Below, piece after piece: positions 10,185 through 35,627 of a DNA stretch of 38,552 nt. Each line of letters begins with the position of its first letter. The stretch's first letter is position 1. The stretch comes from an uncultured Elusimicrobia bacterium (lineage in GTDB: Bacteria > Elusimicrobiota > Elusimicrobia > UBA1565 > UBA9628), in the NCBI GenBank assembly GCA_903874575.1, contig CAIQSZ010000370.1:1-38552 (forward strand), read 5' to 3'. Position numbers and translations under genes: made by a program. Under the pieces are notes generated by a model, which worked only from the letters and a program-made list of their open reading frames with translations, was not told the DNA's origin and did no database searches.

Positions 10185-10191
10185 GGCGCCC

Positions 10192-16081: not shown

Positions 16082-16133
16082 CGAATTGCTCCTGGTCATG
16101 TCGATATGCCAGCCTCGGCGGAGGCGACCGGTC

Positions 16134-16147
16134 ATTATATAACATTG
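16134..16147 (-). promoter_or_regulatory. AT-rich element upstream of nrdJ: possible -10 box (TATAAT on minus strand) and/or degenerate NrdR-box-like site
   Basis: The minus strand reads CAATGTTATATAATGA about 50 nt upstream of the nrdJ ATG. It is the only AT-rich island in this intergenic region. The palindromy is imperfect. Confidence 0.25.
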
Positions 16148-16171
16148 CGCGCGTCGGGTTCCTGCTGCGTC

Positions 16172-17128: not shown

Positions 17129-17275
17129 GCGGCCTTCGTCCGGGTATTAGGGAACACCGTCCATATTGTGTGAAATATCCGGCGAGTCCGCCAATCGCCA
17201 TCGCCTCGTGCGCGCCCGACTCTATGACCATTGCCATAGTCAGCTCGTTTGGGCGGGGCTATACTCCGGGTATCT

Positions 17276-18043
17276 ATGGAACACTCCATCGACATCCGGT
17301 TGCGCCTTCACTTCGAACCTCGCACCCTGCGCCCGGTTCTCGCGGGGCTGTTCGTGTTCCTGCTGGCGGCGGACCTCGCGTCCGAGAGCGTCACGCTGAC
17401 CACCTATTACCCGGCCCCGTCGGGGGTCTATACGCAGATGATCACGACCAACAATACGTTTCTGGCCCGCGACGCCGGCAACGTCGGCATTGGGACGGCC
17501 GCGCCCGTGTCTAAACTCGACGTGACGGGGACCGCCTACGTCAGCAAGTTGGTCATGAAAGGGAACAACACCGCGAACACCGCCGATCCGCTTGCGGCGG
17601 ACTTCGTGATCGGCAGCAACAGCCTAGGCGCGGTGCGCCACGACTCAAGCATCATGTTTTGGAGCAATGCGAGCGCCTCGCGCATTTTTAACCAAAACGA
17701 CAGTTTCTTCCTAAGTGCTTGGAATCAAAATCCGACCGCCGCCGCCAACGTCGTTCTGGGCGCGGGGCCCGGCTTCTCCAGCCACTTCGGCGGCAACCTT
17801 GGCGTCGCCGGGACTCCGCCGGGCGCCAGTCCATATTTATACGTGAACGCGGCCAACGCTCCCGGCTGCGCCGTGACCTTTGGGAACTGCGCTCCGGGTC
17901 AGTACATCACCTGGGTGCCCGGCATCTATGTCGACAATGCTTGGTGGTATACCGGAGATACTTTGAACTTCGTGCCCCATGGGGGTATTTCGGGGTTCGA
18001 CGTCACAACGGCGCCTACCCCCCATTATTGTTGCAATCAATAA
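17276..18043 (+). CDS. secreted or membrane-anchored protein with tail-fibre-like GNVGIGT motif, C-terminal ...HYCCNQ
   Basis: N-terminal hydrophobic anchor LAGLFVFLLAADLA, then TLTTYYPAPSGVYTQM and AGNVGIGTAAPVSKLDVTG. First gene of the long plus-strand operon. The start is uncertain: ATG at 17276 or TTG at 17249. A weak TAGTCA-17-TATACT promoter-like element lies at 17237-17265. Confidence 0.55.
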   Translation: MEHSIDIRLRLHFEPRTLRPVLAGLFVFLLAADLASESVTLTTYYPAPSGVYTQMITTNNTFLARDAGNVGIGTAAPVSKLDVTGTAYVSKLVMKGNNTANTADPLAADFVIGSNSLGAVRHDSSIMFWSNASASRIFNQNDSFFLSAWNQNPTAAANVVLGAGPGFSSHFGGNLGVAGTPPGASPYLYVNAANAPGCAVTFGNCAPGQYITWVPGIYVDNAWWYTGDTLNFVPHGGISGFDVTTAPTPHYCCNQ

Positions 18044-18084
18044 TGACGGGCCGGCATATCCGCAGTGGAAGTTCGGAACGTTGA

Positions 18085-19026
18085 ATGGCTGAGCTCGCCT
18101 ATCTCCAGGTCGCGCGAGTTTGCAACCAGAAGTGTCTCTTCTGTTCGAATCCGGAGAACGGACGCGTCATCAGCTGGGAGGAGGCGGTGTCCTTCGTGGA
18201 CTCCTCCGCGGCCCAAGGGGCGGCCGGTCTTATCCTCACCGGTGGAGAACCGACGTTGTTCGAGCGCCTTCCCGAGTTGGTCGCCTATGCCCGCAAAAAG
18301 GGACTGCCCGCCAGGATGATCACCAACGGCCAGCGCGCCGCTCGGCCGGGCTTTCTGCGCGCACTCGCCGCCGCGGGTCTGGAGCATATGCACGTCTCCG
18401 TTCATTCCGTCAAACCCCGCGTCCAAGGGCGCCTGACCGGCAATCCGCGGTCTTTGGCCAATATTTTCAAGGCCATAGAATACGCCGGCCGCGAAGGCGT
18501 GAGGGTGGACGTCAACATGGTCATCAATGCGTTGAACGCCGATCACTTGAGCCTCAACGTCCAGGTTTTGGCGGAAAGATTCCCGTTTCTGCGTCATTTC
18601 GTTTGGAACAACCTGGACCCGATGATGAACCGCGCCTCGCTCAATCCGGACCTGGTTCCCAAACTACGCGCTTTCGAGGTGGAACTCCACAAGGCCATGG
18701 TTTGGCTGGACGCGACGGGGAGGACCTTCCGCGTCGAGAGGGTCCCCCTGTGCTTCATGTCCGACTTCCCTCACCGCTCGACCGAGACGCGCAAGATCGT
18801 CAAGGACGAGAACCGCGAGATATACTTCCTCGATGAGAAAGGCCTGCGCCGCCAAGGCCGGAGCGCCTGGACCTACGAAAAGCCGGCGCGGTGCGCCGAC
18901 TGCTCCCTGACGACGATCTGCGCGGGTCTTTACCAGATGGACGTCTATTATTCCTCGGAGGAACTCTGCCCGGTTTTCACGCCCGTCGAAAGCGTGCGGG
19001 CGGCCGTCAAGGCGGACGCTCCATGA
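18085..19026 (+). CDS. radical SAM enzyme, HxsC-like paralog 1
   Basis: CNQKCLFC (CX3CX2C), LTGGEPTL, ITNGQR and the C-terminal CADCSLTTIC (CxxCx5C) motif, which is shared with four other domains in the operon. Confidence 0.75.
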   Translation: MAELAYLQVARVCNQKCLFCSNPENGRVISWEEAVSFVDSSAAQGAAGLILTGGEPTLFERLPELVAYARKKGLPARMITNGQRAARPGFLRALAAAGLEHMHVSVHSVKPRVQGRLTGNPRSLANIFKAIEYAGREGVRVDVNMVINALNADHLSLNVQVLAERFPFLRHFVWNNLDPMMNRASLNPDLVPKLRAFEVELHKAMVWLDATGRTFRVERVPLCFMSDFPHRSTETRKIVKDENREIYFLDEKGLRRQGRSAWTYEKPARCADCSLTTICAGLYQMDVYYSSEELCPVFTPVESVRAAVKADAP

Positions 19027-20198
19027 GCGGAAACTTATTTCTCGGCGTGATTCTTCTTCTCGGAGGGGCGGCGACCATGTCGGATTGGCGGGAGAGCCGC
19101 GTGCCGAACCGGCTCGTCCTGCTGGGCCTGGCCGCCTTCGCCGGCGGACTGGTCTATCACCTGCTCTCCTCGGTCCTCGGGCATCGGGGATGGCGCCTGC
19201 TCGACATAGGTGAATATTATTTGCCCTGGCGTTTTTTCTCGATGCTGGGCGTTCACGCGATTTTGAGTCTCATCGCCGGTTGGACTCTGTGGCGTGTCGA
19301 CGTTTGGCCCGCCGGCGACGCCAAGCTTTATATTGTAATTTCTTGGCTCCTGCCTCTGGCCAACGCGAATTTGACGGGTTTCCCGAGACTCCTCTTCATC
19401 GTACTCCTCATCAATTGCTTCGTGCCGCCGGGTATACTCTTCGCCTGCGAGGGGGTCATCCGGCTCGCGGCCGCGGTCCCGGCGTTCTTTTCCGAAGGGA
19501 TATTCCGCGCGCTCAAGTCCGCCGTGAGCCGCGTCGTCCGGCGGATCAAGGACCTGCGGCCCATGCGACTGGAGGTGGCCGCCTTGCTGGTCAATTTGGC
19601 GTGCTTGTTCTTCGTCATGCGCTTGCTCGAGGCGCAGCTTCACCGCCAGCCGTTCGGGGCTTTAGGCCAGCTCGCGGTGTTTCTATCGATGCTCGTGGTC
19701 TGGCCTCGGCTTGTCGTCCTCCTCTATCGACCCCGATTAGGCGCCGCGGCGCTGTGTCTGTTTTTCGTCGGAGCAGTCTGCGCCGTCGTCGCGGGATTGG
19801 ACTTGGGGGCGGTTGTCTGGCGCGCGGCCAAGATGATGGTCAACTTCGGTTTCGCTCTTTCTTTGGCGCGCGTGGTCTTCAGCCGCGTCATCGAGCGCTC
19901 GAGTCTGCGGGACGTCGCCCCCGACGAATTGCGCCCGGGCGCCTTGCTGGCGGACACGGAGTGGGAAGCGCTTTCCAAGGACGAGGGCTCGCGCGGGATC
20001 GTGGAAGAGAGGAACTGCGACGGCCTGACGCGCGTCGAGGCCGAAGCTCTCCGCAGCAGCCTGTCGGGCCGCGGCGTCCGTTCCTTGTGCGTTTACCGGA
20101 CCGTTCCTTTCGCGGCCTGGATATTCCTGGGCACGGTATTGACCCTCGCGCATCAGGGGACCATCGTGTCTTGGGCTCGGAGTTGGATGGCTCGATGA
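19023..20198 (+). CDS. A24-family (prepilin peptidase-like) polytopic aspartyl protease with an inserted or extended C-terminal region
   Basis: The first Asp context MSDWRESRVPNRL resembles the D-x-R-x-x-IPN of CpaA/TadV. The second is WPAGDAKLY, a GxGDxKL-like motif. The C-terminal TVPFAAWIFLG resembles the PFGPFL end of prepilin peptidases. ATGA overlaps on both sides with radical SAM genes. Confidence 0.6.
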   Translation: MSGNLFLGVILLLGGAATMSDWRESRVPNRLVLLGLAAFAGGLVYHLLSSVLGHRGWRLLDIGEYYLPWRFFSMLGVHAILSLIAGWTLWRVDVWPAGDAKLYIVISWLLPLANANLTGFPRLLFIVLLINCFVPPGILFACEGVIRLAAAVPAFFSEGIFRALKSAVSRVVRRIKDLRPMRLEVAALLVNLACLFFVMRLLEAQLHRQPFGALGQLAVFLSMLVVWPRLVVLLYRPRLGAAALCLFFVGAVCAVVAGLDLGAVVWRAAKMMVNFGFALSLARVVFSRVIERSSLRDVAPDELRPGALLADTEWEALSKDEGSRGIVEERNCDGLTRVEAEALRSSLSGRGVRSLCVYRTVPFAAWIFLGTVLTLAHQGTIVSWARSWMAR

Positions 20199-21106
20199 GC
20201 GAACGCATCGACCTTAAAGTGGGTTTTCGCTGCAACAACTACTGCACGTTCTGCGTCCAGGGCGACAAACGTCAGCGTCTGCCCTCCAAGCCCGAGGGCG
20301 AACTTTTCAAAGCGCTCGAGGAGGGCCGGCTTGAAGGCGCCGACGGCGTCGTTCTCACCGGCGGCGAGCCGACGCTTCATCCTAAGATCGTCGCCATCGC
20401 GGCCAAAGCCAAGAGCCTCGGCTATCGGACGATCCAGGTCCAGACCAACGGGCGGACCTTCTGCTACGGCGACCTTATCAAGCGCCTGGCCGACGCGGGC
20501 GTCAACGAGTTCGGTCCATCCCTGCATGGTTCCACGGCGAGGATACACGATTGGCTCACCGGCGCGCCGGGGGCCTTCCTTCAGACCGTCTCGGGCATGC
20601 GCAACATAAAGAAACACGGAATGCGCCTCATCACCAACTCCGTCATTACGAGAGCCAATTATCGAGATCTCCCTAATTTGGCGAAGCTTCTCGTGTCGCT
20701 CGGCGTCGATCAGTTTCAATTCGCGTTCATGCACATGACCGGGCGCGCCGGAGAGAACAAGAATTGGCTGACGGCGCGCATGGCGATCGCCGAGCCTTGG
20801 GTGAAAAAGGCTCTTGACGTCGGCATCGCCGCCGGCCGGACCGTCATGACCGAGGCTATTCCTTACTGCCGCATGTCCGGGTATGAGGACTATGTCGCCG
20901 AGAGGATCATTCCCCGCACCCGAATCTACGACGCCGACTGCGTCATCGCCGACTACACCAAGACCCGTTTGGACGAAGGGAAGGCTCGCGGACCGCTTTG
21001 TCCGAAATGCGATTGGAACGACCGTTGCGAGGGTCCGTGGCGGGAATATCCGGAACTTTTCGGTTGGGATGAATTCGTTCCGGTTTTGCGAACTGGGGGG
21101 GCTTAG
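20195..21106 (+). CDS. radical SAM enzyme, HxsC-like paralog 2
   Basis: CNNYCTFC, LTGGEPTL, QTNGRTF and C-terminal CPKCDWNDRC (CxxCx5C). Confidence 0.75.
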   Translation: MSERIDLKVGFRCNNYCTFCVQGDKRQRLPSKPEGELFKALEEGRLEGADGVVLTGGEPTLHPKIVAIAAKAKSLGYRTIQVQTNGRTFCYGDLIKRLADAGVNEFGPSLHGSTARIHDWLTGAPGAFLQTVSGMRNIKKHGMRLITNSVITRANYRDLPNLAKLLVSLGVDQFQFAFMHMTGRAGENKNWLTARMAIAEPWVKKALDVGIAAGRTVMTEAIPYCRMSGYEDYVAERIIPRTRIYDADCVIADYTKTRLDEGKARGPLCPKCDWNDRCEGPWREYPELFGWDEFVPVLRTGGA

Positions 21107-21116
21107 GCCAACGACT

Positions 21117-22289
21117 ATGAGCAGGTTAATAAAGCGGTTCCGTCGCGTTTTTTTCGCCGTCCTTGCCGTCTTGACGGTCGGGGTGTGCCATGCCGCTCCG
21201 CCTTCCCAGCCGCAACAAGCCAAGCTCGGCCAGAAGGATGCAGGTAAAAATACCGGCAAAAGCGAGGAAAGAGACAGGAGCAAAGACAAGGAGCAGCAAG
21301 CGAACCTGAGAAAATTTTCCGCTTGGGACGAACTGTGCCGGGCGGGGACGTTCGATATTCGCGCCGTCAAGGGCCGCGATTCGGGCTCTCCGCCTGAATT
21401 GGGCGTGGCGTATGCGTGCCTTGCGCTGGCGTCTTCCGCGGCGGCTCCGGCCAAGGCGTCGGGCAATCCGGGATTGGACGAGGACGTCCGCAGCCTGACC
21501 GGGAGCGTCTTAGCCATTCACGGCGTCCTGTCGGGAGGTGGTTACACGGAGAAAGCATGCCGGTTGATGGCCGGGACGCCTGAGGGCCAGGCGCCCTCCT
21601 CCGCGAGCAAGCAGCAGTGCCAGCTTTTTTTCTCGGCCCTCCGGGAGAACAAGGGCGGCGGCTTATTGTGCGATCAGGCCAAGGCGAAAGGTCTTGCGGG
21701 CGCAGGCTTTGATTGTTCTCTGGCCGCCAACGTCGTGGATGGGAATTCCAAACGATGCGGCGGTCCCGATGCTTTGCGCTGCCAGGAACTGGCGGGTCTC
21801 GTCGCGGCGTTGCGTTCCAAGGATCCGGGAGGGTGCTCGTCCTCCGTGTTCTGCAAGGTCTTGAAGAGTCGCGACGCCAGGGATTGCGAGCCGTATTTGA
21901 AAAAAGCGGACGTCGGGTTCTGCGCTCGGAACGCCGAGGAATTAGGTAAGCTGAAGCAAGCGGCCCGCGGCGATGCGGATCGTGAGAAAAAAGACAAGGA
22001 CGAGCTCGCCGCAAAAATCCGCGACCAGCAGGCGCAGATTCAAGCCGAAGCCAAGAAAGCCCAGGAGGACCTCGCTGCAAAAACAAGAGATCAGAAACTG
22101 ATGCCCGCGGATGCCGCAGCCAAATTAGCCCGCAGCGAGCAGCAGGCGGAGGCGATGGCCAAAAAAGCGGCCGCCAAAAAAGCGGCGGATGAAAAATTTC
22201 ATAAAGATAAATTTAATAAAATGCAGCCCATGCAGGCCGTCTCGACGGATATCCAGAAGCGAATGAAAGAGATCGAAGGGAAGAAGTGA
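21117..22289 (+). CDS. secreted Cys-rich protein with C-terminal Lys/Ala/Glu-rich coiled-coil tail
   Basis: Signal peptide MSRLIKRFRRVFFAVLAVLTVGVCHA. Repeated short D/K-x(2-4)-C spacing, seen in KDPGGC, RDARDC, ADVGFC and PDALRC. The last ~110 aa are low-complexity K/A/E/Q. Confidence 0.6.
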   Translation: MSRLIKRFRRVFFAVLAVLTVGVCHAAPPSQPQQAKLGQKDAGKNTGKSEERDRSKDKEQQANLRKFSAWDELCRAGTFDIRAVKGRDSGSPPELGVAYACLALASSAAAPAKASGNPGLDEDVRSLTGSVLAIHGVLSGGGYTEKACRLMAGTPEGQAPSSASKQQCQLFFSALRENKGGGLLCDQAKAKGLAGAGFDCSLAANVVDGNSKRCGGPDALRCQELAGLVAALRSKDPGGCSSSVFCKVLKSRDARDCEPYLKKADVGFCARNAEELGKLKQAARGDADREKKDKDELAAKIRDQQAQIQAEAKKAQEDLAAKTRDQKLMPADAAAKLARSEQQAEAMAKKAAAKKAADEKFHKDKFNKMQPMQAVSTDIQKRMKEIEGKK

Positions 22290-22302
22290 ACGCAGTTCCG
22301 AT

Positions 22303-22929
22303 ATGTCGGCGCGCAGGGAGAATATCAGGGTGAAAAAGCAATCGAAGGAATCTAAGATCGTGGTGGACCTTTCGGTGTATCCATTGGAGGCGGTCCAGGC
22401 CGTGGCTTACTCGCTGATGGAGCGCCTTTCCGTTCGCATAGAACGCGGCGGGAATAAAGCGGTTTCCGTCATCCTGAAGCCGAAGTCGGGCGGGAATCCC
22501 GAGGCGCTGGCCGACGAATTCCAAGGCGAGCTTCTGCATGAGACCCTCCGTCTCCAGGTGTCGCTGGCGAATCAAAAGATCCGAGAGTACATCGTGACGA
22601 AGGCCTTGGTTTCGGCCCAGGTTCCCAGTGTGGTTCCGGAAGCGGTCTCTGATTCGGCCTCGTCGGCGGCGGCTGAGTCCTGTCCCGAGTGCCAGGCCCA
22701 ACAGGCCCAAGCCGCGCCGCCTCCGGTCGACGCGGAATTGGAGAAAGAGATCGAGAAACTTCTCGTTGAAATCGAGAAGGGCGACGGCGGAGACGATCCT
22801 CTGGGAGTGGCGGTGCCGTGGGAAGAGAAGTACGGCAAGGCGTCCGAAGCCGCGCCGCCGCCTTCGGATAAAGAGCCCTCGAAAATGAAATCAAAAACGG
22901 CAAAGCCGGCGAAGCCGGGGGCTGCATGA
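22303..22929 (+). CDS. hxsD: HxsD-like protein (His-Xaa-Ser system accessory protein) with ~100-aa low-complexity C-terminal extension
   Basis: FQGELLHETLRLQVSLANQKIREYIVTKAL resembles the LLNDYxLRE signature I recall for HxsD. The gene sits directly upstream of hxsB with an ATGA overlap. The tail contains CPEC and Pro/Ala/Lys-rich sequence. Confidence 0.55.
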   Translation: MSARRENIRVKKQSKESKIVVDLSVYPLEAVQAVAYSLMERLSVRIERGGNKAVSVILKPKSGGNPEALADEFQGELLHETLRLQVSLANQKIREYIVTKALVSAQVPSVVPEAVSDSASSAAAESCPECQAQQAQAAPPPVDAELEKEIEKLLVEIEKGDGGDDPLGVAVPWEEKYGKASEAAPPPSDKEPSKMKSKTAKPAKPGAA

Positions 22930-24395
22930 GCGGGGAAGCCCCCATCGTGGAGTTCCCACGCCTCAATCCGGAAAAGACGGGTTTTTTTCGGTTTCGACGG
23001 CTCAAGGATGATTATCTCATCACCAATGATTTCGGCCGGCACTGCCTCTTAACGGCGGCGGAGTTCAAGAGCTTCGTCGAGGGCTCGATGGACGCATCCT
23101 CGCCGTTGTACGCGCGGCTGGCGCAGGACGGATTCATCCGCGACAGCATGGATTTCGAGGCGTTGACGTCCGTTTGGCGGACTCGCAACCGCTTCCTATG
23201 GCAGGCCCCCAATCTTCATATCATCGTCGTCACTTTGCGCTGCAACCACCGTTGCCTCTACTGTCAGGCCAACTCGGTCTCGATGAAGGATGAGTCGTCG
23301 GATATGAGTTTGGAGACGGCGCGCAAGGTCGTGGACCGGATATTCGAGAGCGTAAGCCCCGCCATCACCATCGAGTTCCAGGGCGGGGAACCCTTGGCCA
23401 ACTGGCCGGTCGTTCAGTTCATCGTCGAGTACGCCCGCACGAAGAACCGCGAGGCCGGCAAGAGCCTGTGGATCAACTTAGTCACCAACCTGAGTCTCAT
23501 GGACGACGAGAAGTTGAAATTCCTCCTCAAGAACGAGGTCAACTTTTGCACTTCGCTCGATGGGCCCGCGGACCTGCACGACAAGAACCGCGTTTTCTCC
23601 GGCGGCAACAGCCATGCCGGCGCCGTGCGGTGGTTCAAGAAGATTCAGAAGAAGACGGTGGGCAAAGCCTTCCGCATCGATGCCTTGCTGACGGTGACGC
23701 GGTTCTCGCTGTCGCGCCACAAGGACATCATCGATGAGTATATCGGTCTCGGCATGCGCGGGATATACCTGCGGCCTTTAAGCCGGCTCGGCCTGGCGCG
23801 CGGGACCTGGGACCGGATCGGCTACGAGCCGGACGAGTTCCTCGAATTCTATCGGAAGTCGCTCGATTACATCCTTGAAATCAACAAACGCAAGAATTTT
23901 TTCGAGCAGACCTCCCGCTTGTTCCTGGCTAAGATTTTGGGAGACAACGATCCCAACTTTTTGGACCTCCGTTCGCCCTGCGGCGCGGGGATCGGCCAGA
24001 TCGCCTACAACTTCAACGGCGATCTTTATACCTGCGACGAAGGACGGATGTTCTCGCGCATGGGAGACGAATCCTTCCGCATCGGGGGCGTCAACGAGGG
24101 ATCTTACCAGGAAAGCGTGAGCCACCCGACCGTGCGCGCCATCACGGTGGCTTCCACCCTGGATAACCAACCGCAGTGCTCGAAATGCGCTTATAAGCCC
24201 TACTGCGGCGTGTGCCCGGTGCAGTGCTACGGTGAACAAGGCGATATCATGGGCCGCATGCCGTCCAACACGCGTTGCCGCTTGAACATGGGCGTCCAGG
24301 ACGCTTTATTCGAGCGGCTTCGGGATCCTAAGACGGAAAAGACTTTCAGGAAATGGATTCGTGAAAGAAAAGAACCGGCCGTCTCTCCGCGCTAG
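22926..24395 (+). CDS. hxsB: radical SAM/SPASM maturase, HxsB-like
   Basis: CNHRCLYC lies ~110 aa from the N-terminus. FQGGEPL is present. C-terminal SPASM-type Cys cluster CGAG...YTCDEG...CSKCAYKPYCGVCP. Directly upstream of the His-Xaa-Ser repeat gene. Confidence 0.75.
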   Translation: MSGEAPIVEFPRLNPEKTGFFRFRRLKDDYLITNDFGRHCLLTAAEFKSFVEGSMDASSPLYARLAQDGFIRDSMDFEALTSVWRTRNRFLWQAPNLHIIVVTLRCNHRCLYCQANSVSMKDESSDMSLETARKVVDRIFESVSPAITIEFQGGEPLANWPVVQFIVEYARTKNREAGKSLWINLVTNLSLMDDEKLKFLLKNEVNFCTSLDGPADLHDKNRVFSGGNSHAGAVRWFKKIQKKTVGKAFRIDALLTVTRFSLSRHKDIIDEYIGLGMRGIYLRPLSRLGLARGTWDRIGYEPDEFLEFYRKSLDYILEINKRKNFFEQTSRLFLAKILGDNDPNFLDLRSPCGAGIGQIAYNFNGDLYTCDEGRMFSRMGDESFRIGGVNEGSYQESVSHPTVRAITVASTLDNQPQCSKCAYKPYCGVCPVQCYGEQGDIMGRMPSNTRCRLNMGVQDALFERLRDPKTEKTFRKWIRERKEPAVSPR

Positions 24396-24404
24396 AGGTA
24401 TTCC

Positions 24405-24872
24405 ATGGGCAAAGAAATCATTCCTAAAATCAAAAAAGACCTCACTCGGTTCTTGACGAGTGAAGAAGGTAAGATGCTCAAGAAGGACATCCTTAAGGCC
24501 GCAGCCATCCTGGGCATCGTCGGAGCGACCATGATGAAGGCGGAGGACGTCCTCGCTCAGACCCACACCAACGCCCTCCATAATTCGGGCGGACAGGCGT
24601 CGAGCCATGTGAGCCATAGTTCGCATGCCAGCCATGCTTCTCACGGCTCTCACGGCAGCCACGGTTCGCACGGCAGCCACGGTTCGCACGGCTCCCATGG
24701 CTCGCACGGAAGCCACGGCAGCCACGGGTCCCACGGCTCGCACGGATCCCATTCATCCCACGGCAGCCACGGCAGTCATGGGAGCCATGGCAGCCACGGC
24801 AGTCATGGCAGCCACGGCAGCCACGGCAGCCACGGCAGTCATGGGAGCCATGGCAGCCACGGGAGTTGGTAG
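24405..24872 (+). CDS. hxsA: His-Xaa-Ser repeat precursor protein (29 H-x-S triplets, 24 of them HGS)
   Basis: GAGG RBS 7 nt upstream of the ATG. A 67-aa N-terminal region contains the Sec-like hydrophobic segment KKDILKAAAILGIVGATMMKAEDVLAQ. Then HVS-HSS-HAS-HAS-(HGS)12-HSS-(HGS)12-W-stop. Confidence 0.85.
   Translation: MGKEIIPKIKKDLTRFLTSEEGKMLKKDILKAAAILGIVGATMMKAEDVLAQTHTNALHNSGGQASSHVSHSSHASHASHGSHGSHGSHGSHGSHGSHGSHGSHGSHGSHGSHGSHSSHGSHGSHGSHGSHGSHGSHGSHGSHGSHGSHGSHGSW
24606..24866 (+). repeat. coding tandem repeat, 9-nt period x 29 (CAY-GGN-TCN/AGY)
   Basis: Read directly from the sequence. The first 12 HGS units mix TCT/TCG/TCC/AGC Ser codons, while the last 12 use only AGC/AGT. The last 12 also contain an exact 36-nt duplication, units 1-4 equal to units 8-11 of that block. 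Confidence 0.95.
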
Positions 24873-28916: not shown

Positions 28917-29760
28917 ATGCAACTGCCGCTGCGCTTTCTGCGTCGTCGACGCGGAGACGGCGCGTCAGTCCATGACGACGGCCGAAGCCGTGCGTCACAT
29001 GGGGCGAGCCCGGAAGGAGGGCGCGAGCGCGGTGGATTTCGGCGGCGGGGAGCCGACGCTGCGCGACGACTTGGCCGCGCTCGTCCGGGCCGCCGCCGCG
29101 TTCGGGTATTCGGACATCGGCGTCAAGTCGAACGGATTGATGTTCTGCTATCCGGAATACGTCGAGACGTTGCGCCGCGCGGGGGCGGACCGTTTTTCCG
29201 TCTCCGTTTGGGGCGATTGCCCGTCCGTCCATGACGCGCTCTGCCGGACGCCGGGGGCCTTCGAGAAGATGGAGATGGGGATAAAAAACGTCGTCGATTC
29301 GGGGGGCGATCCTGAGGCCGAGGTTCTGCTGACCGTCGGGTCCGTCCCGCGGTTGGGGCGCATCGTGGGGGCGTTCGCGGACATCGGGGTGAAGCGGTTC
29401 CGGTTCTGGCTCTATTCGCTCTTCGGGGCGGATTCCCGTTTTCCGGAGCTTCTGCCGACGTTGACGGACGCGGGAGCGGCGATCTCGCGGACGTCCTCCT
29501 CCTTCGCATCCCGAGGACTGATTTTTTCGACGAGCCACGTCCCGCCCTGTTTTCTGCGCGCGCGGGGCGTCTACGCTCCCATTGCCGACGAAGGACTGCG
29601 CATCATCACGCCGGGCGGAGCGTTCGCCGCCGAGCGTTCGCCGTTCGAGGCCGGCGTCAAGACGCGGCGGTGCGCGGGATGCTCCCACGCCGACCGTTGC
29701 GGAGGGGTTCGTCACGAATATCTCCAGCGTTTCTCCGATGCCGAAATCACGCCGATCTGA
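28873..29760 (+). CDS. radical SAM enzyme, HxsC-like paralog 5
   Basis: CNCRCAFC, FGGGEPTL, KSNGLMF and CAGCSHADRC (CxxCx5C). The ATG at 28873 overlaps the previous gene by 44 nt. Confidence 0.7.
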   Translation: MSSTLKKIELILWFKCNCRCAFCVVDAETARQSMTTAEAVRHMGRARKEGASAVDFGGGEPTLRDDLAALVRAAAAFGYSDIGVKSNGLMFCYPEYVETLRRAGADRFSVSVWGDCPSVHDALCRTPGAFEKMEMGIKNVVDSGGDPEAEVLLTVGSVPRLGRIVGAFADIGVKRFRFWLYSLFGADSRFPELLPTLTDAGAAISRTSSSFASRGLIFSTSHVPPCFLRARGVYAPIADEGLRIITPGGAFAAERSPFEAGVKTRRCAGCSHADRCGGVRHEYLQRFSDAEITPI

Positions 29761-31156
29761 GGGGTTGCCGCCGGCGCAGGCGCGCGACTTTCAACGCTAT
29801 CTCGAAATGGCCCGCGGGCTTCCTTGGGAGGCCGAGCAGCTGCCGGCCTGCGAACTGCACGGCGCGCCGCTCTCCGGAGAGGCTGTCGGCGCGCTTTGGG
29901 CTCAGGCCGTCCGGGCGGGCTCTTTCGGGGGGGGCCTCGGCCTCTATTGCCACATTCCGTTCTGCGCGAGCCGTTGCGGCTATTGCCATTGCTTTTCCGA
30001 CGCCTTGAAGCGCCCGGATGAGTTAAGCGACCACCTCCGCCTGCTCTTGACGGAGATCTCTCTCTGGGGGCCGACGTTCGCCCGGAGCCGCTTCACCAAC
30101 GCCTACATCGGCGGCGGGACGCCCACGCTCCTGCCTCCGAAAGGCCTGGCGCTTCTATTGGGCGCGATACGAAGCGCCTTCCGTTTCACGGATGACGCTC
30201 AGATTACCGTCGAGTCCACGCCGAGGACCGCCGACGCGAACCGTTTGGCCGTCCTGCGCGCCCATGACGTCCGTCGCCTGAGTCTCGGCGTTCAATCCTT
30301 GGATCGCGCGGTGCTGGCCCGCGCGGATCGACAATGGCAGACCTTCGAGATGGTGGAACGCGCCTGCCTCAACGCCCGCCGGGCGGGGTTCCCCATCGTG
30401 AACGCCGACCTCATCGCGGGCCTTCACGGTCAATCCGTCGCCTCGCTCATCGCGGACGCGCAAGCGGTGGCTCGGCTGGGATTCGATACGATACACGTCT
30501 ACTACTTCGAACCGAACAAAGGCGCCTACGACGGCCGCGGTCGCCTCGGCGCCGCCTGGCGACGGCGCCGTCAGGCCATGCTGGCGGCGGTCGGTCCCGC
30601 CCTGGCTCCTTACGGCTACCGGGCCATCTTCGGCGAGACGATCTACGCGTTGCGCGAGGGGGCGGAGAACCGCTACGATTTCGAACGGTACTTCCGAGCG
30701 GGTTCGATCCTCGGTCTGGGATGGCAGGCTGAATCCCATGCTTTCCCGGGAACCAACTACAGACATCTTTCGAGGCAATCGTGGCAGGAAAGCCTTCGGG
30801 CCGGTCGCATGCCGCCCGTGCGGTCGTACCGGGGCGGACCGGACTGGGAAATGCGGGAGTTTCTCGTCTTCCGTCTGCGCCAAGGGGTCGATTATGGCGT
30901 TTTCCGGAGACTTTTCGGCTGTCGGCCTCAGGACGCGTTTCCGGCCGCCTTCCGCGCCCTCCGGCGGGCCGGCCGCCTTCGCGAGCGGACCGGCTTCGTT
31001 CAGGCGGTGTTCGGCTCACAGTTGGAGTATCTGGCCGTCACTTTGCATTTTTTCCCCGAAGAATCTCTTTTGAGGGCATTGTCGATGCGCCCATCGGTCC
31101 AGACGGATGGAGGGCGAGAGTCGCCCGTGCGTCGCGGCTCGCGCCCGGAGGCGTAG
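29738..31156 (+). CDS. HemN-like (class C) radical SAM enzyme
   Basis: YCHIPFCASRCGYCHC (CX3CX2C followed by an extra Cys), YIGGGTPTLL, SLGVQS and a HemN_C-like tail. The start is uncertain: ATG at 29738 or 29810. Confidence 0.75.
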   Translation: MPKSRRSEGLPPAQARDFQRYLEMARGLPWEAEQLPACELHGAPLSGEAVGALWAQAVRAGSFGGGLGLYCHIPFCASRCGYCHCFSDALKRPDELSDHLRLLLTEISLWGPTFARSRFTNAYIGGGTPTLLPPKGLALLLGAIRSAFRFTDDAQITVESTPRTADANRLAVLRAHDVRRLSLGVQSLDRAVLARADRQWQTFEMVERACLNARRAGFPIVNADLIAGLHGQSVASLIADAQAVARLGFDTIHVYYFEPNKGAYDGRGRLGAAWRRRRQAMLAAVGPALAPYGYRAIFGETIYALREGAENRYDFERYFRAGSILGLGWQAESHAFPGTNYRHLSRQSWQESLRAGRMPPVRSYRGGPDWEMREFLVFRLRQGVDYGVFRRLFGCRPQDAFPAAFRALRRAGRLRERTGFVQAVFGSQLEYLAVTLHFFPEESLLRALSMRPSVQTDGGRESPVRRGSRPEA

Positions 31157-31157
31157 C

Positions 31158-32300
31158 GTGACCTCCGTCAAAGGAAGCCCGGAAATATATCTCGACAATG
31201 CCGCCACCACGCCGCTGCGCCCGGCCGCGTTGCGCGCGATGATGGATTGCTCCCGGCGTTTCTACGGCAATCCCTCCTCGTGGCATCGCAAGGGCGTCGA
31301 GGCGTCTCGGGCCGTGGAGAAAAGCCGCCGAATCCTCGCGCTGGCTCTGGGTTGCGAGCCGGACGAGATCGTCTTCACTTCCGGGGGTACGGAAGCCAAT
31401 AATCTCGCCGTCAAAGGGGTGGCGCGGGCTTTAGGGAGGCGCCGGGCCCACGCCGTCGTCTCGGCCGTCGAGCATCCCAGCGTGGCGGCCGCCGTCCAGT
31501 CGCTGAAGGCGCGGGGCTGGTCGATCACCGTCGTGAAGACGGACGAAGATGGGATGGTCGCGCCCCGCCGCGTCGCCGAGGCGCTGACCTCCTCCACCGC
31601 TTTGGTCAGCGTCATGCACGCCAACCATGAGATCGGGACGATCGAGCCCATCGCCGAGATCGGCCGCCTCTGTCGACGGGCCGGAGTCCTCTTTCACAGC
31701 GACGCCTGCCAAAGCTTCATGAAGGAGCCGCTGGATTTGAGACGGGTTGCGGTGGATTTGGTCAGCGTCAACGCCCACAAACTCCATGGACCAAAGGGCG
31801 TCGGCGCCTTGGTCGCGCGCCGAGGATCGTCTCTGGCGCCGCTCCTGGACGGGGGCGGACAGGAAGGCGGACGTCGTTCCGGGACCCACAATACCCCCGC
31901 CATCGCGGGGTTCGCCGCCGCCGTGGAGGACTCCGACCCCGGGGCGCCCGAGAAGATGCGGCGTCTGCGTGACAGGCTCTTTGCGGCGCTCGTTCGGACG
32001 ATACCGGGGCTGAGCCTTAATGGGCCGCGTCATGGCCGCCTCTGCAGCCATCTGAATCTGCTGCTGCCGGGGCTCCAGGCCAAGCCCTTCCTCCAAAAAC
32101 TCAGCGCCGCGGGGATATACGCTTCCGCCGGAGCGGCCTGTTCCTCAGCCAAGACCACTCCTAGTCCCGTGCTGCTCGCCATTGGAAGGACTCCCGAGCA
32201 GGCGTCGTGCAGCGTGCGCTTGAGTTTGAGCCGCTCGACCACTCCGTCCCAGATCGACGCGGCGGCTCGGACGATGGCGTCGCTCGCCCGCGGCCTATGA
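31158..32300 (+). CDS. cysteine desulfurase (NifS/IscS-like, class V aminotransferase)
   Basis: IYLDNAATTP, TSGGTEANN, PLP-lysine context SVNAHKLHGPKGVGAL, RSGTHN and active-site loop SAGAACSS. A GTG start at 31158 lies 1 nt after the upstream stop. The ATG at 31107 would overlap by 50 nt. Confidence 0.8.
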   Translation: MTSVKGSPEIYLDNAATTPLRPAALRAMMDCSRRFYGNPSSWHRKGVEASRAVEKSRRILALALGCEPDEIVFTSGGTEANNLAVKGVARALGRRRAHAVVSAVEHPSVAAAVQSLKARGWSITVVKTDEDGMVAPRRVAEALTSSTALVSVMHANHEIGTIEPIAEIGRLCRRAGVLFHSDACQSFMKEPLDLRRVAVDLVSVNAHKLHGPKGVGALVARRGSSLAPLLDGGGQEGGRRSGTHNTPAIAGFAAAVEDSDPGAPEKMRRLRDRLFAALVRTIPGLSLNGPRHGRLCSHLNLLLPGLQAKPFLQKLSAAGIYASAGAACSSAKTTPSPVLLAIGRTPEQASCSVRLSLSRSTTPSQIDAAARTMASLARGL

Positions 32301-32536
32301 CCGAATCCGAAGAGACCCTTGATCTTCGCGGCGTTCCTTGTCCAGCCAACGCGGCTCGGGCGCTGATGGCGCTCGAGGGGTGCGAGGCCGGAGACCTGCT
32401 GAGGCTACTGCTGGACGACGGCGAGCCCATCGAGAACGTGCCTCCCTCGCTGGAGGAGCAGGGCCATGCCGTGGTCGGGAAATCCTGGCGGGGAGGGGCG
32501 TGGGAACTGTCGGTGAGGGCGGGAGGTCCATCCTGA
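32297..32536 (+). CDS. TusA/SirA-like sulfurtransferase
   Basis: LDLRGVPCPANA matches the DxRGxxCPxP persulfide-carrier motif. About 79 aa. ATGA overlap with the cysteine desulfurase gene. Confidence 0.75.
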   Translation: MTESEETLDLRGVPCPANAARALMALEGCEAGDLLRLLLDDGEPIENVPPSLEEQGHAVVGKSWRGGAWELSVRAGGPS

Positions 32537-33558
32537 TGGAAACGAGGCTGTGCGGCCGATGCGTTCTTCCCGAGTCCGCGCCGGACATCCATCTGGATTC
32601 GCAGGGGGTTTGCAACCTCTGCCGCGATCACGAGAAGCGCCGTCCGGAGGCGGGGGCTTCGCGTCTTTTGGAATCGGACTTCACGAAGATCATTGAGAAG
32701 CACCGCGGACGGCATGAGTTCGATTGTCTCGTGATGTGCAGCGGCGGCAAGGACAGCACGGCGGCTCTCTATTACGCCAAGCGTCGCTATAAACTCAATG
32801 TCCTGGCATTTACCTTCGACCATGGATTCGAGACGGAGGAAGCCCTCGACAACGTCCGCCGCGCCGTCGAGACGCTCGACGCGACGTTTCTGACCTACCG
32901 GTCGACCTTCATGCGCGACATGTTCGCCAGACTTTTGAAGTCGGGCTCTCCCGCGGTCATCTGCCACGTCTGCGCGATCTGGTACATGGGCCTGACCTAT
33001 CGGATGGCCGAGCGCTTCGACGTCCCCCTGATCATCGCCGGCTGGACCAAGGGGCAGATGACCTCTCAGCCGGTCCTGACCAAGTGCGCCTGCAACCTGG
33101 CGGCGCCCGAATACGCTCGGATGGGACGGGCGACGAAGGACTTTCTCGCCGGACTGAAGGACGACCCCAAGTACAAGGATTTCCCGGGGAGCATCGAGGA
33201 GGTCGTCGCTCGGGCTCAGAAGCGCCATAAATCGCTCGTCCTTTCTCCCCACTGGTTCCTGCCCTACTCCGCCGACGAATACGTCCCCGTCATCGAGAAG
33301 GAACTGGGCTGGCGCCAGCCGCGCCTCAGCTATCCGGCCAAGACCACGAATTGCGCCCTCAATTTCATCTCGGTGCAATGGGCGTTGAAGCACTACGGCT
33401 ACACGCATTACCATGTGGAGATGAGCAAGCTTATCCGCGAGGGTTTGCTGACCCGCGAGGAGGCGCTGGAGCAGTTGCGCGCCGACTTCGACCCCGAATT
33501 GCTCAACCGCATCGCGGGGCCCCTGGGGTTCCGGTTCCCGGATCGGACGGGCGCATGA
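32536..33558 (+). CDS. PP-loop ATP pyrophosphatase family protein (N-acetyl-sugar amidotransferase / WbuX-PseA-like architecture)
   Basis: N-terminal zinc ribbon CGRCVLPES...GVCNLC, PP-loop VMCSGGKDST and a conserved CHVC. TGATG overlap with the tusA-like gene. Confidence 0.7.
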   Translation: METRLCGRCVLPESAPDIHLDSQGVCNLCRDHEKRRPEAGASRLLESDFTKIIEKHRGRHEFDCLVMCSGGKDSTAALYYAKRRYKLNVLAFTFDHGFETEEALDNVRRAVETLDATFLTYRSTFMRDMFARLLKSGSPAVICHVCAIWYMGLTYRMAERFDVPLIIAGWTKGQMTSQPVLTKCACNLAAPEYARMGRATKDFLAGLKDDPKYKDFPGSIEEVVARAQKRHKSLVLSPHWFLPYSADEYVPVIEKELGWRQPRLSYPAKTTNCALNFISVQWALKHYGYTHYHVEMSKLIREGLLTREEALEQLRADFDPELLNRIAGPLGFRFPDRTGA

Positions 33559-33716
33559 AGAAGCTCGTCTTGATCCTGCGCGAGGCCTTCCATTTGGTCC
33601 GGCGGCATAAGTTTTATTTTCTTCTCCCGATATTTCTCGTGCTCGCCGCCCTGGCGTTCCTGGCTTATGAGATCGGGCCGGCCGTCGTCGTCTCCTTCAT
33701 CTACGCGGGACTATGA
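33555..33716 (+). CDS. DUF5989-like small membrane protein
   Basis: The 53-aa MKKLVLILREAFHLVRRHKFYFLLPIFLVLAALAFLAYEIGPAVVVSFIYAGL fits the pattern I recall for this family: a basic stretch, then LLPI..VL...., ending FIY..L. That family usually neighbours carbamoyltransferases. ATGA overlaps on both sides. Confidence 0.6.
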   Translation: MKKLVLILREAFHLVRRHKFYFLLPIFLVLAALAFLAYEIGPAVVVSFIYAGL

Positions 33717-35404
33717 CTTCCCGAGTTCTCGGCCTTTCCTGCCACTACCACGACTCGGCGGCTTGTCTGATGGAGGCGGGCGGCATCGTCGCCGCGGCTC
33801 AAGAGGAACGCTTCCTCCGTAGGAAGAACGCTTCGGGGTTTCCTCTGCACGCGCTCAACTACTGCCTCCAGGCGGGGGCAATCACCGTCTTGGACCTCGA
33901 CGCGGTCGCGTTCTACGAGAAGCCGTTTCTGAAGTTGGCCCGCGTTCTCGAAAGCCACCTGGACTCCTGGCCCCGATCATTCGGTTCTTTCCGGCGGACC
34001 ATGGCGCACTGGCTGGACGATCGTCTGACCCTGCCGCTGTCGTTGAAGTCGCGACTCGGCTTCTCCGGCCGGACGTTTTTCGTCAAGCACCACCTGGCCC
34101 ACGCGGCCTCTGCCTTCTACCCGTCCGGCTTCGAGGAGGCTGCGGTCCTCACCGTCGACGGCGTCGGCGAGTGGGCGACCGTGACCAGGGGGCACGGCGC
34201 GGGCAATCGTCTGCGCATCGATTCCGAGATGCGCTTTCCTTCCTCGCTCGGGCTTCTCTATTCGGCCGTGACGAGTTATCTCGGATTCGAAGTCCATGAA
34301 GGAGAGGGAACGGTGATGGGCTTGGCCGCCTATGGCAGCCCCGTTTTCCTGGATCGTTTGCGGGGGATCGTCCCGTCGACGCCCGACGGCGGATTCATGC
34401 TCGATCGCGGCTGGTTCGATTTCAGCGGGGATGGGAAGATGTATACGCCGCGCTTCGTCGAGGCTTTCGGTCCCGAGCGCGTTCCCGGAGGCCCTCTGGG
34501 GGAGCGTCACTGCGATATGGCGGCCAGCCTGCAGAGCCTCACGGAGGAAATTCTCCTGCGTTTGACCCAAGGCCTGCGCGCGCAAACCAAGTGCGAGTCC
34601 CTCTGTCTGGCGGGCGGGGTAGCCCTCAATTGCGTGGCCAACCAGAAAATTCTCGACTCGTCCGGATTCAAGAAGGTCTTCGTCCAGCCCGCGGCGGGCG
34701 ACGCGGGCGGCTCCCTAGGAGCGGCCGCTTTCGTCAGTCACGCCTTGTGGGGTCATCCGCGGCCGGCTCGGATGAGTCCCTACCTCGGGCCGGACTGCAG
34801 CGCGTCTCGGATCAGAAGGGTTCTGACCAACGCCGGGCTGGACTTCCGCGAATTATCGGAAAAAGAGTTATGCCGAGAAACGGCCGCCAGGCTGGCGCGG
34901 GGTAAAGTGGTAGGCTGGATGCAGGGCCGCATGGAATTCGGTCCGCGGGCTTTGGGCAACCGTTCGATTCTCGGCGACCCGCGCCATCCGAGGATGAAGG
35001 AAATAATCAACGAGCGGGTAAAGCGACGGGAGGAATTCCGTCCCTATGCGCCCGCGGTGCTCGCGGAGGCAGCGAGAGACTTCTTCGAGCTCGAGGGAGA
35101 CAGCCCCTTCATGCTTTTCGCGCCTCGCATCCGCGAGGAGAAAAAATCCGTTCTTCCCGCCGTCGCCCATCCCGACGGTTCGGCGCGCGTGCAGACCGTG
35201 CGCGAGGCGGACAACCCCAGGTTCCATCGCCTGATCGCTTCGTTCGGAGAACTGACCGGCGTTCCCGTGGTCGTCAATACCTCGTTCAACCGCAGGGGCG
35301 AACCGATGGTCTGCGCCGCGGAGGAGGCCGTCGCCGTTTTTAAGGAGAGCCGGATGGACTGCCTCGCCGTCGGCGACTTCTTCGTGGAGCGCGATGGGAA
35401 TTAA
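33713..35404 (+). CDS. carbamoyltransferase (NodU/CmcH family)
   Basis: N-terminus VLGLSCHYHDSAACL...AAQEERFLRRKN, VKHHLAHAASAFY, LCLAGGVALNC, and C-terminal domain motifs GRMEFGPRALGNRSILGDPR, RPYAP and VNTSFN. Confidence 0.85.
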   Translation: MTSRVLGLSCHYHDSAACLMEAGGIVAAAQEERFLRRKNASGFPLHALNYCLQAGAITVLDLDAVAFYEKPFLKLARVLESHLDSWPRSFGSFRRTMAHWLDDRLTLPLSLKSRLGFSGRTFFVKHHLAHAASAFYPSGFEEAAVLTVDGVGEWATVTRGHGAGNRLRIDSEMRFPSSLGLLYSAVTSYLGFEVHEGEGTVMGLAAYGSPVFLDRLRGIVPSTPDGGFMLDRGWFDFSGDGKMYTPRFVEAFGPERVPGGPLGERHCDMAASLQSLTEEILLRLTQGLRAQTKCESLCLAGGVALNCVANQKILDSSGFKKVFVQPAAGDAGGSLGAAAFVSHALWGHPRPARMSPYLGPDCSASRIRRVLTNAGLDFRELSEKELCRETAARLARGKVVGWMQGRMEFGPRALGNRSILGDPRHPRMKEIINERVKRREEFRPYAPAVLAEAARDFFELEGDSPFMLFAPRIREEKKSVLPAVAHPDGSARVQTVREADNPRFHRLIASFGELTGVPVVVNTSFNRRGEPMVCAAEEAVAVFKESRMDCLAVGDFFVERDGN

Positions 35405-35627
35405 GGCGGCCCTGGCGCGCGCGGCGCAGCGCTCAGCCGACGTCATGCGTTCCGCCCTGCTTTCGGCGGGGCTCTTCGTCGTGTATTTTCTCGGGATGGG
35501 GCTGACGCGCGCGCTGGCGGTACTGTTCGGCGGGCGGACGCGCGCGTCCAGCTTTCGCGAGGATCCGGCTTGGCGCCCCGCCGAGGGGTATGACTCCGAC
35601 GAGGAATCCTGCCTCAGGCAGTCCTAA
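35394..35627 (+). CDS. small membrane protein, hypothetical (possibly SxtJ-like companion of the carbamoyltransferase)
   Basis: The 77-aa ORF overlaps the carbamoyltransferase end by 11 nt and has one hydrophobic stretch, LLSAGLFVVYFLGMGLTRALAVLFG. Family assignment is weak. Confidence 0.4.
   Translation: MGIKAALARAAQRSADVMRSALLSAGLFVVYFLGMGLTRALAVLFGGRTRASSFREDPAWRPAEGYDSDEESCLRQS

Follow-up and report, generated by a model that had tools for sequence, protein, structure and literature searches.

The stretch of DNA analyzed here (the window; 38,552 nucleotides [nt], contig CAIQSZ010000370.1, assembly GCA_903874575.1) comes from an uncultured Elusimicrobia bacterium and carries, on the plus strand at positions 17276-35627, 18 co-directional genes (g1 to g18) that include an expanded His-Xaa-Ser (Hxs) maturation system of radical S-adenosylmethionine (SAM) enzymes. 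Genes were called from all six reading frames, with start codons picked by junction geometry, and families were assigned by NCBIfam model cut-offs and Pfam gathering scores, so that bit scores are given below as score against cut-off. Labels of the form Lnnn denote related genome or metagenome loci that were compared with the window. Very probably, the array consists of two independently inherited units lying head to tail, the first of them Hxs-type in identity. Unit A comprises g1 to g11 (17276-29760), perhaps extending through g12 to 31156, and unit B comprises g13 to g18 (31158-35627) together with the minus-strand gene d1. The genes are as follows.

g1, 17276-18043, plus strand: first gene of unit A; 255 amino acids (aa), N-terminal hydrophobic segment and fibre-like repeats, from sequence reading
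g2, 18085-19026, plus strand: HxsC-like radical-SAM protein with CNQKCLFC and a C-terminal C...CX2CX5C (Radical_SAM 80.1)
g3, 19023-20198, plus strand: 391-aa polytopic membrane protein, divergent A24-type (prepilin-peptidase-like) aspartyl protease (Peptidase_A24 PF01478, 24.9 against 26.5)
g4, 20195-21106, plus strand: HxsC-like radical-SAM protein with CNNYCTFC (HxsC4 159.6 against 500; HxsC 98.6 against 267.9)
g5, 21117-22289, plus strand: 390-aa protein with a signal-peptide-like N terminus, Cys-rich all-alpha domain and long C-terminal helix (AlphaFold2 model, predicted local distance difference test score 73.7)
g6, 22303-22929, plus strand: HxsD-like protein with a low-complexity C-terminal extension (TIGR03976, 44.5 against 50; 63% identity to L163)
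g7, 22926-24395, plus strand: HxsB, radical-SAM/SPASM maturase with CNHRCLYC (TIGR03978 equivalog, 530.9 against 370)
g8, 24405-24872, plus strand: HxsA4-type precursor (NF038313, 131.7 against 55; repeat and codon analysis)
g9, 24850-26652, plus strand: fusion of an HxsC-like radical-SAM domain (CNNRCVFC) and a class I SAM methyltransferase (Radical_SAM 82.7; Methyltransf_11 32.3 against 21.2)
g10, 26649-28916, plus strand: fusion of a B12-type radical-SAM domain (CAYRCSFC) and an HxsC-like radical-SAM domain (CNNNCRFC), with two Radical_SAM stretches
g11, 28873-29760, plus strand: HxsC-like radical-SAM protein with CNCRCAFC (Radical_SAM 66.1; HxsC4 104 against 500)
g12, 29738-31156, plus strand: HemN-like radical-SAM protein with CASRCGYC (STM4012 family, 152.7 against 380)
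g13, 31158-32300, plus strand: first gene of unit B; NifS/IscS-type cysteine desulfurase (Aminotran_5 231; NifS 379 against 530), with an alternative ATG start at 31107
g14, 32297-32536, plus strand: TusA-family sulfur carrier (PF01206 59.1)
g15, 32536-33558, plus strand: PP-loop ATP pyrophosphatase, WbuX-like (TIGR03573, 163.9 against 203.2)
g16, 33555-33716, plus strand: 53-aa DUF5989 membrane peptide (PF19451, 26.6 against 27)
g17, 33713-35404, plus strand: NodU/CmcH/SxtI-type carbamoyltransferase (Carbam_trans_N 227, Carbam_trans_C 240)
g18, 35394-35627, plus strand: 77-aa small membrane protein accompanying the carbamoyltransferase, without a family match in NCBIfam and Pfam scans
d1, 35641-37011, minus strand: GDSL/SGNH-like protein with TPR-like repeats (Lipase_GDSL_2 24.6, under the gathering score)

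Sixteen of the 17 junctions between g1 and g18 are overlaps or gaps of no more than 13 nt. Seven of them are ATGA overlaps (g2/g3, g3/g4, g6/g7, g9/g10, g13/g14, g15/g16, and g16/g17), g14/g15 is a 1-nt TGATG overlap, and the others are overlaps of 11-44 nt or gaps of 1-13 nt, the sole larger gap being the 41 nt between g1 and g2. The tightly packed same-strand array of the original prediction was therefore confirmed, with 18 genes in place of about 20 and with the g1-g2 gap as its exception. Its eight CX3CX2C motifs, spread over seven plus-strand proteins, matched letter for letter, each within a Pfam Radical_SAM domain that scored above the gathering score, and so did the ninth motif, CTRDCFFC, in a divergent minus-strand gene. 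A promoter and terminator scan gave nothing decisive, and no riboswitch or other RNA was found by an Rfam search of the window. PADLOC returned generic viperin-type radical-SAM similarity only, with no Hxs model match.

A genome scan with g9 as the query returned 80 loci, mostly from Myxococcota metagenome-assembled genomes (MAGs) and some from Elusimicrobia, Parcubacteria, and archaea, and the window proteins were then mapped onto these loci. HxsB was present in 31 of the 80 loci, (HGS)n proteins with 10-64 repeats in 15, the full-length g9 fusion in 23, the g10 fusion in seven, g2 orthologues (45-56% identity) in 12, and g4 orthologues (44-57% identity) in 38; a single locus held up to eight HxsC-like genes. 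In a protein search, the closest relatives were Elusimicrobiota MAGs with 48-60% identity. L163 has the gene order g1-g2-g3-g5-HxsD-HxsB-HxsA-g9-g10-g11, followed by another radical-SAM gene and then a g4 orthologue, with identities that span 32% (g1) to 88% (HxsA leader), and g5 through g11 are kept in L164 and L166. This synteny indicated that g2, g3, g4, g5, g9, g10, and g11 are true companions of HxsB and HxsA4, and the proposed expansion of the Hxs core is thus not fortuitous. g12, which we place in unit A tentatively, is conserved neither in L163, L164, or L166 nor in the unit B loci except L102 and L103; it scored 123 against 325 on the HemN model and 17.8 against 24 on HemN_C. An HExxH-type motif, HEFSH, marks a protein of roughly 447 aa that recurs in 11 Myxococcota-type Hxs loci (L001, L003, L004, L011, L012, L014, L019, L021, L022, L025, and L026; for example L025:8712-10055, minus strand) and that the window lacks; it might be an accessory enzyme or a protease of an alternative kind.

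The distribution of unit B was examined by a metagenome scan with g15 as the query, which returned 80 loci with 55-79% identity. Around g15, the other cassette genes recur in variable order, namely g13 orthologues (44-68% identity) in 34 loci, g14 in 40, g16 in 42, g17 in 43, g18 in 18 by tblastn or 27 by clustering, and d1 homologues in 18. No HxsB orthologue was found in the 80 loci, where a single 27% match was obtained. Conversely, none of g13 to g18 occurs in L163, L164, or L166, in which nitrogenase-like genes, major facilitator superfamily and T2SSE genes, or a SPASM enzyme lie downstream of g11. Because the cassette is conserved independently and is missing from the closest Hxs relatives, unit B is very probably separate from unit A, and d1 is assigned to it by synteny despite its opposite strand. 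The sulfur and carbamoyltransferase genes therefore do not belong to the single functional unit of about 18 kb that had been proposed, their lack of synteny with hxsA being the outcome that the original prediction had itself named as telling against them; their family assignments (cysteine desulfurase, TusA, PP-loop enzyme, and carbamoyltransferase) and that of the methyltransferase domain were borne out.

Unit B resembles the SxtI/SxtJ/SxtK/SxtL genes of saxitoxin clusters (PMC2679770) in combining a carbamoyltransferase, a peptide of about 54 aa (g16, whose size equals that of SxtK; sxtK is 165 nt), a second small membrane protein, and an adjacent GDSL-family protein. Unlike those clusters, it is joined to a cysteine desulfurase, a TusA protein, and a WbuX-like PP-loop enzyme, and has no other sxt genes. 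Most likely, unit B thiolates and carbamoylates a small molecule or a glycan.

The core of unit A was recovered in part as predicted. HxsB (g7) and the repeat protein (g8) passed the HxsB and HxsA4 models clearly, whereas HxsD (g6) was marginal, with a precomputed Pfam PF27806 HxsD match on record for the identical protein, and the gene at 24850-26652 (g9), which had been named hxsC, failed both the HxsC and the HxsC4 cut-offs. Beyond its own model, HxsB is nearer to the nif11, PapB, SCIFF, and anSME families than to GrrM/OscB or YhhB. The HxsA4 protein is 155 aa long and comprises a hydrophobic segment at residues 29-43, a repeat block at residues 68-154, and a terminal Trp. The block holds 29 His-Xaa-Ser units (24 HGS, two HSS, two HAS, and one HVS), and thus 29 His in 87 residues, with no Lys and no Arg. 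On the HxsA3 model the protein stayed under the cut-off (41.8 against 65), the canonical HxsA model was not among its five families at E ≤ 0.01, and a Pfam scan found no peptidoglycan-binding domain; its collagen match in Pfam was taken as a compositional Gly-X-Y match and rejected. The HxsA homologue of L163 also passes the HxsA4 model (78.3 against 55). Within the repeats, Gly is encoded by four codons and Ser by all six from both codon families, the latter indicating that selection on the peptide, rather than recent slippage of the DNA, maintains the repeat. Long alternative-frame open reading frames (ORFs) over the HGS repeat DNA, at 24306-24752 (minus) and 24625-24849 (plus), are by-products of its 9-bp periodicity, and one public gene call for the contig annotates the antisense ORF (L081:3662-4108) instead of HxsA.

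The HxsA leader is the most conserved sequence of the cluster, being 79-88% identical to those of L163, L164, and L166. A leader motif, approximately (I/L)P-x-(I/F)-(K/R)(K/R)-x4-(F/M)L-x3-E, is common to all 16 aligned HxsA4 homologues, while the repeat count varies from about 6 to 64 and nearly all C termini, in the window protein and its homologues at 14 loci, are GSW, GQW, or GSY, with the aromatic residue directly after the last repeat. In half of the 16 homologues, among them those of the window, its Elusimicrobiota relatives, a Parcubacteria MAG, and a Methanosarcinales MAG, the leader motif is followed by a hydrophobic anchor-like segment, which is missing from the remaining eight, all of Myxococcota-type MAG origin. 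In the Myxococcota versions, one Cys stands at the start of the repeat block (HCSHGS). The HxsA4 of the window contains no Cys, and thioether chemistry, considered for HxsB on account of its similarity to PapB and SCIFF, was for this reason dismissed at this locus. With a conserved leader, a repetitive core of varying length, and adjacent maturases, g8 has the layout of a RiPP-like precursor (RiPP, a peptide made on the ribosome and modified after translation).

Five HxsC-like domains (g2, g4, the N-terminal domain of g9, the C-terminal domain of g10, and g11) share CX3CX2C with a C-terminal C...CX2CX5C, which suggests that they hold an auxiliary Fe-S cluster. HxsC4 was the best-scoring model for g4, g9, the C-terminal domain of g10, and g11, and likewise for every g4 orthologue that was scored; the sub-cut-off scores not listed above were, for HxsC and HxsC4 respectively, 75.9 and 64.1 for g2 and 66.3 and 95.3 for g9, and the C-terminal domain of g10 scored 107.3 on HxsC4. 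The two scores of g4 are the highest of the five paralogs, and its orthologues (44-57% identity; 78% in L163) directly adjoin HxsB in eight minimal two-gene pairs. On these grounds g4, rather than the gene at 24850, is the best candidate for the HxsC equivalent. Among themselves the HxsC-like domains are only 25-31% identical, whereas g2 and g4 orthologues across phyla share 44-57%, indicating that the paralogs are ancient and specialized. Identities to the closest relatives are 83% for g2 in L163 and, across L163, L164, and L166, 51-56% for g9, 55-60% for g10, and 59-61% for g11. The N-terminal domain of g10 scored 17.6 against a gathering score of 32.1 on B12-binding PF02310 and is weakly similar to B12 radical-SAM families (HpnJ, 70 bits; the Sden_1168 family, 54 bits; TIGR04013).

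Three further proteins of unit A are envelope or membrane candidates. g3, which the original prediction had called an A24 aspartyl protease, fell below the Pfam gathering score and gave no match in a PDB sequence search; its catalytic Asp motifs, D21 (SDWRESRVPN) and D98 (AGDAKL, of the GD.K type), are nevertheless invariant in 10 of 10 aligned homologues. It is 67% identical to its L163 counterpart and has homologues also in L024, L047, L049, L055, L066, L067, L073, and L103, and its motifs make it a candidate leader peptidase. g1 has no match in Pfam and NCBIfam scans, is weakly similar (E 6e-06) to Bd2133, a Bdellovibrio fibre protein (PDB 8OND), and has a homologue at the equivalent position in L163 (32% identity). 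For g5, Pfam, NCBIfam, and PDB sequence searches gave no match, only two database homologues were found, and a fold search with the AlphaFold2 model gave no PDB match better than E 0.4; homologues lie directly upstream of HxsD in L163 (42%), L164 (29%), and L166 (28%). Judged from their N-terminal hydrophobic segments alone, g1 and g5 may be secreted.

The best-characterized relative of unit A is the Escherichia coli hxsD-hxsB-hxsC-hxsA system (HXS), an anti-phage system that blocks phage DNA entry (Li et al., Nat Commun 2026; PMC13128918). In that system the maturases modify HxsA itself, which is processed N-terminally, gains 8 Da on one SHRSS motif, and exerts its action in the periplasm; HxsD is a binding partner of HxsC, and the basic repeats are said to bind DNA (PMC13128918). 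The statement in the original prediction that product and role had never been determined is thus outdated. The window shares with canonical HXS an HxsB equivalog, an HxsD-like protein, a His-Xaa-Ser repeat as the presumed substrate, and HxsC-like radical-SAM partners, and N-terminal processing and envelope export appear plausible for it too. It differs in gene number (11-12 in unit A against four) and in order, which is g4 ... D-B-A-g9-g10-g11, with HxsC-like genes on both sides, in place of D-B-C-A. In its HxsA, 29 near-perfect HGS units go together with a hydrophobic segment and a terminal Trp, whereas in the canonical protein five basic repeats accompany a peptidoglycan-binding domain. Furthermore, published HXS systems are 99.7% in Pseudomonadota, more than 99% four-gene, and 99.6% in the D-B-C-A order (PMC13128918), whereas the host here is an Elusimicrobiota member. 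The window variant therefore falls outside the scope of that study (PMC13128918). It is closer to the type 4 models of NCBIfam (HxsA4 NF038313, HxsC4 NF038332), in that the repeat protein passes HxsA4; the HxsC4 scores of the window proteins and their orthologues, however, are far under the 500-bit cut-off. We found no publication on this type 4 variant and no description of its architecture or function.

Chemically, the repeats recall the substrates of triceptide (three-residue cyclophane) radical-SAM synthases, since HaaB, HtkB, and YhhB act on His-X-X motifs, with HAA, HNR, and HTK as cyclophane precedents (PMC11499958). H-G-S fits the aromatic1-X2-X3 pattern, the SPASM-type enzymes likewise work repeatedly on a leader-bearing precursor, and triceptide chemistry begins with hydrogen abstraction at the beta-carbon of residue 3. 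HxsB, however, scored only 57.4 against 310 on the GrrM/OscB model and 57 against 445 on YhhB, and the +8 Da of canonical HxsA differs from the -2 Da of a cyclophane. We regard the likeness as a chemical analogy only.

In proteusin/polytheonamide pathways, radical-SAM enzymes modify a single long ribosomal core over and over, as is proposed here for unit A; B12-dependent radical-SAM enzymes and a class I methyltransferase take part, and a protease then removes the leader. Proteusin precursors are of a different family, with a nitrile-hydratase-like leader that the window lacks, and the radical-SAM families differ.

Taken as a whole, the best explanation of the locus, in which unit A is an expanded type 4 His-Xaa-Ser maturation system working as set out below and unit B a separate cassette, is somewhat more likely than not. 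The locus holds a real, recurrent variant of a system already known, with an unrelated cassette attached, and not a categorically new class. The candidate new RiPP-like class of the original prediction overstated its novelty, as an NCBIfam HxsA4 model exists and the radical-SAM suite of groundwater Elusimicrobia was noticed in 2020, when it was read as cofactor synthesis. The stepwise mechanism that we propose for unit A, together with its envelope-barrier function, is more tentative, a possibility short of an even chance. In the cytoplasm, the leader would be engaged by HxsD and HxsB, and HxsB with g4 would install the core radical modification on the His/Ser of each repeat; in the related anSME and triceptide enzymes the first step is abstraction of a Ser beta-hydrogen. 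Further, probably iterative, modifications would be made by g2, the HxsC-like domains of g9 and g10, g11, the B12-type domain of g10, the methyltransferase domain of g9, and perhaps g12. g3 would then cut off the leader at the membrane, and the modified His-rich tail would be displayed in the cell envelope alongside g1 and g5. Its likeliest role, by analogy and homology with the characterized four-gene HXS system, would be that of a barrier in the envelope that, for example, keeps out phage DNA.

Several observations weigh against this reading, and they bear on the barrier function with its mechanism, on the nature of the substrate, and on the separation of the two units. As to the first, HxsA4 has no peptidoglycan-binding domain and no basic residues in its repeats, and a defence model based on DNA binding may therefore not apply to it; the cleavage site for g3 is not a canonical class III signal; and the locus sits amid housekeeping genes (methionyl-tRNA synthetase, putative class II ribonucleotide reductase) with no obvious defence island. 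As the main alternative for the role, the mature product might be a mainly metal-binding, His-rich envelope polymer that serves, for instance, to buffer or take up Ni, Zn, or Cu, instead of an anti-phage effector. The His-rich core without Lys or Arg, set against the basic DNA-binding repeats of the canonical protein, the wide variation in repeat number among homologues, and the housekeeping neighbourhood all fit this idea. Yet the cluster encodes neither a metal transporter nor a metal regulator, poly-His by itself binds metal and needs no eight radical-SAM domains for it, and anti-phage defence is all that experiments have shown for the family (PMC13128918). We consider metal binding as the main role unlikely.

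As to the substrate, no gene reaches the HxsC (267.9) or HxsC4 (500) cut-off, and g4 orthologues at seven other loci scored 142-287 on HxsC4; the HxsC-like enzymes resemble the small-molecule enzymes MoaA, AhbD, NirJ, and BlsE as much as peptide maturases. Meheust et al. (2020) described as many as 13 radical-SAM genes in the vicinity of group VI NflHDK genes in Elusimicrobia, Gracilibacteria, and Myxococcales, some with B12 or HemN_C fusions, and predicted tetrapyrrole reduction or cofactor synthesis; the word "peptide" is absent from their text, and a 2026 review lists the function of group VI nitrogenase-like paralogs as unknown. The window shares with those suites its phyla and its many clustered radical-SAM genes, including B12 and HemN types, and L066 derives from a genome named in that study. 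Furthermore, NflHDK homologues directly adjoin g4 or g2 orthologues in L163 (17193-21190), L045 (12705-16141), and L075 (12750-16208), with 54-78% identity for g4 and 51% for g2 in L045. On such evidence, and on the scores of the HxsC-like domains on the AhbD, NirJ, and MoaA models and the HemN-like and B12-type domains of the window, the suite might make a non-peptide cofactor, such as a tetrapyrrole derivative, with HxsA4 as a scaffold, carrier, or bystander. We consider this improbable, to the same degree as metal binding. The window has no Nfl genes, its suite is centred on the collinear HxsD, HxsB, and leader-bearing HxsA4, the precursor leader is the most conserved element, and the homologous enzymes of the characterized system modify HxsA itself (PMC13128918). 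A bolder reading, which we hold to be rather unlikely but slightly less so, reverses the published view. The radical-SAM suites associated with group VI nitrogenase-like proteins would be an expanded His-Xaa-Ser system that acts on a ribosomal (His-Gly-Ser)n protein in place of a tetrapyrrole; the window would hold its Nfl-free form, yielding a heavily cross-linked, methylated His-derived envelope polymer or protein-borne cofactor, and in relatives the nitrogenase-like reductase would act on the peptide-derived product.

As to the separation of the units, all 18 genes might form one pathway, with the HxsA-derived product thiolated by the sulfur trio and carbamoylated by the carbamoyltransferase. 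Units A and B are contiguous, with no intergenic gap, the g12/g13 and all subsequent junctions abutting or overlapping, and no gene boundary has a convincing intrinsic terminator. Multi-radical-SAM clusters also adjoin unit B in L103, L130, and L133/L145. In L103, the PP-loop gene lies near a g12-like gene and g2, g3, and g4 orthologues (54%, 40%, and 53%); in the low-GC metagenome contigs L130 (44-8523) and L133 (1224-5877 and 13154-19914), seven radical-SAM genes, one of them fused to a glycosyltransferase-like N terminus, stand against the PP-loop/carbamoyltransferase cassette, and no HxsB is found there. In addition, a distant class-V aminotransferase, 27-31% identical to g13, lies among the HxsC-like genes of the Elusimicrobia loci L066-L068, L073, L078, and L047, where it could supply sulfur for many Fe-S clusters. 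Given the contiguity and these adjoining clusters, some functional coupling of the two units is possible. A single pathway is nonetheless the least probable of the alternatives, because the cassette recurs in up to 43 of 80 loci that lack an HxsB orthologue, with identities (55-79%) far above those of the Hxs genes in distant relatives, is replaced by other genes downstream of g11 in L163, L164, and L166, and includes a gene on the opposite strand. Translationally coupled packing here made an independent sulfur/carbamoyl cassette resemble part of a pathway, which calls for caution.

Among the flanking genes, no mobile-element or defence-island signatures were seen. The genes at 213-1634, 2454-4709 (minus), and 5639-8248 encode a CDP-alcohol phosphatidyltransferase, methionyl-tRNA synthetase, and a large CarboxypepD_reg/LTD-domain protein, respectively, and are of housekeeping or envelope type. 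On the minus strand, 13580-17128 holds an 851-aa ORF that, from its translation read by eye, resembles a B12-dependent (class II) ribonucleotide reductase whose C-terminal tail is Cys-rich, and directly upstream of it the 318-aa radical-SAM gene at 16172-17128, which carries CTRDCFFC and is weakly NrdG-like (Radical_SAM above the gathering score). In relatives, synteny with the Hxs unit is seen for neither of the two. The radical-SAM gene was dismissed as a ninth member of the system, since related loci gave only generic 23-34% radical-SAM-domain matches and no orthologue. Long ORFs at 8739-13487 and 37093-37752 (481, 570, 559, and 219 aa) had no Pfam match; the 219-aa ORF is Cys-rich with a signal-like N terminus.

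The barrier role of the four-gene HXS system has been shown only recently, and its +8 Da radical chemistry on one repeat is still unsolved. With 29 near-identical target sites and eight radical-SAM domains for one substrate, unit A is a favourable case for the His/Ser chemistry of Hxs systems and a possible source of new iterative peptide chemistry. For the unexplained radical-SAM suites found with group VI nitrogenase-like proteins, it further points to a concrete candidate substrate that can be put to the test.

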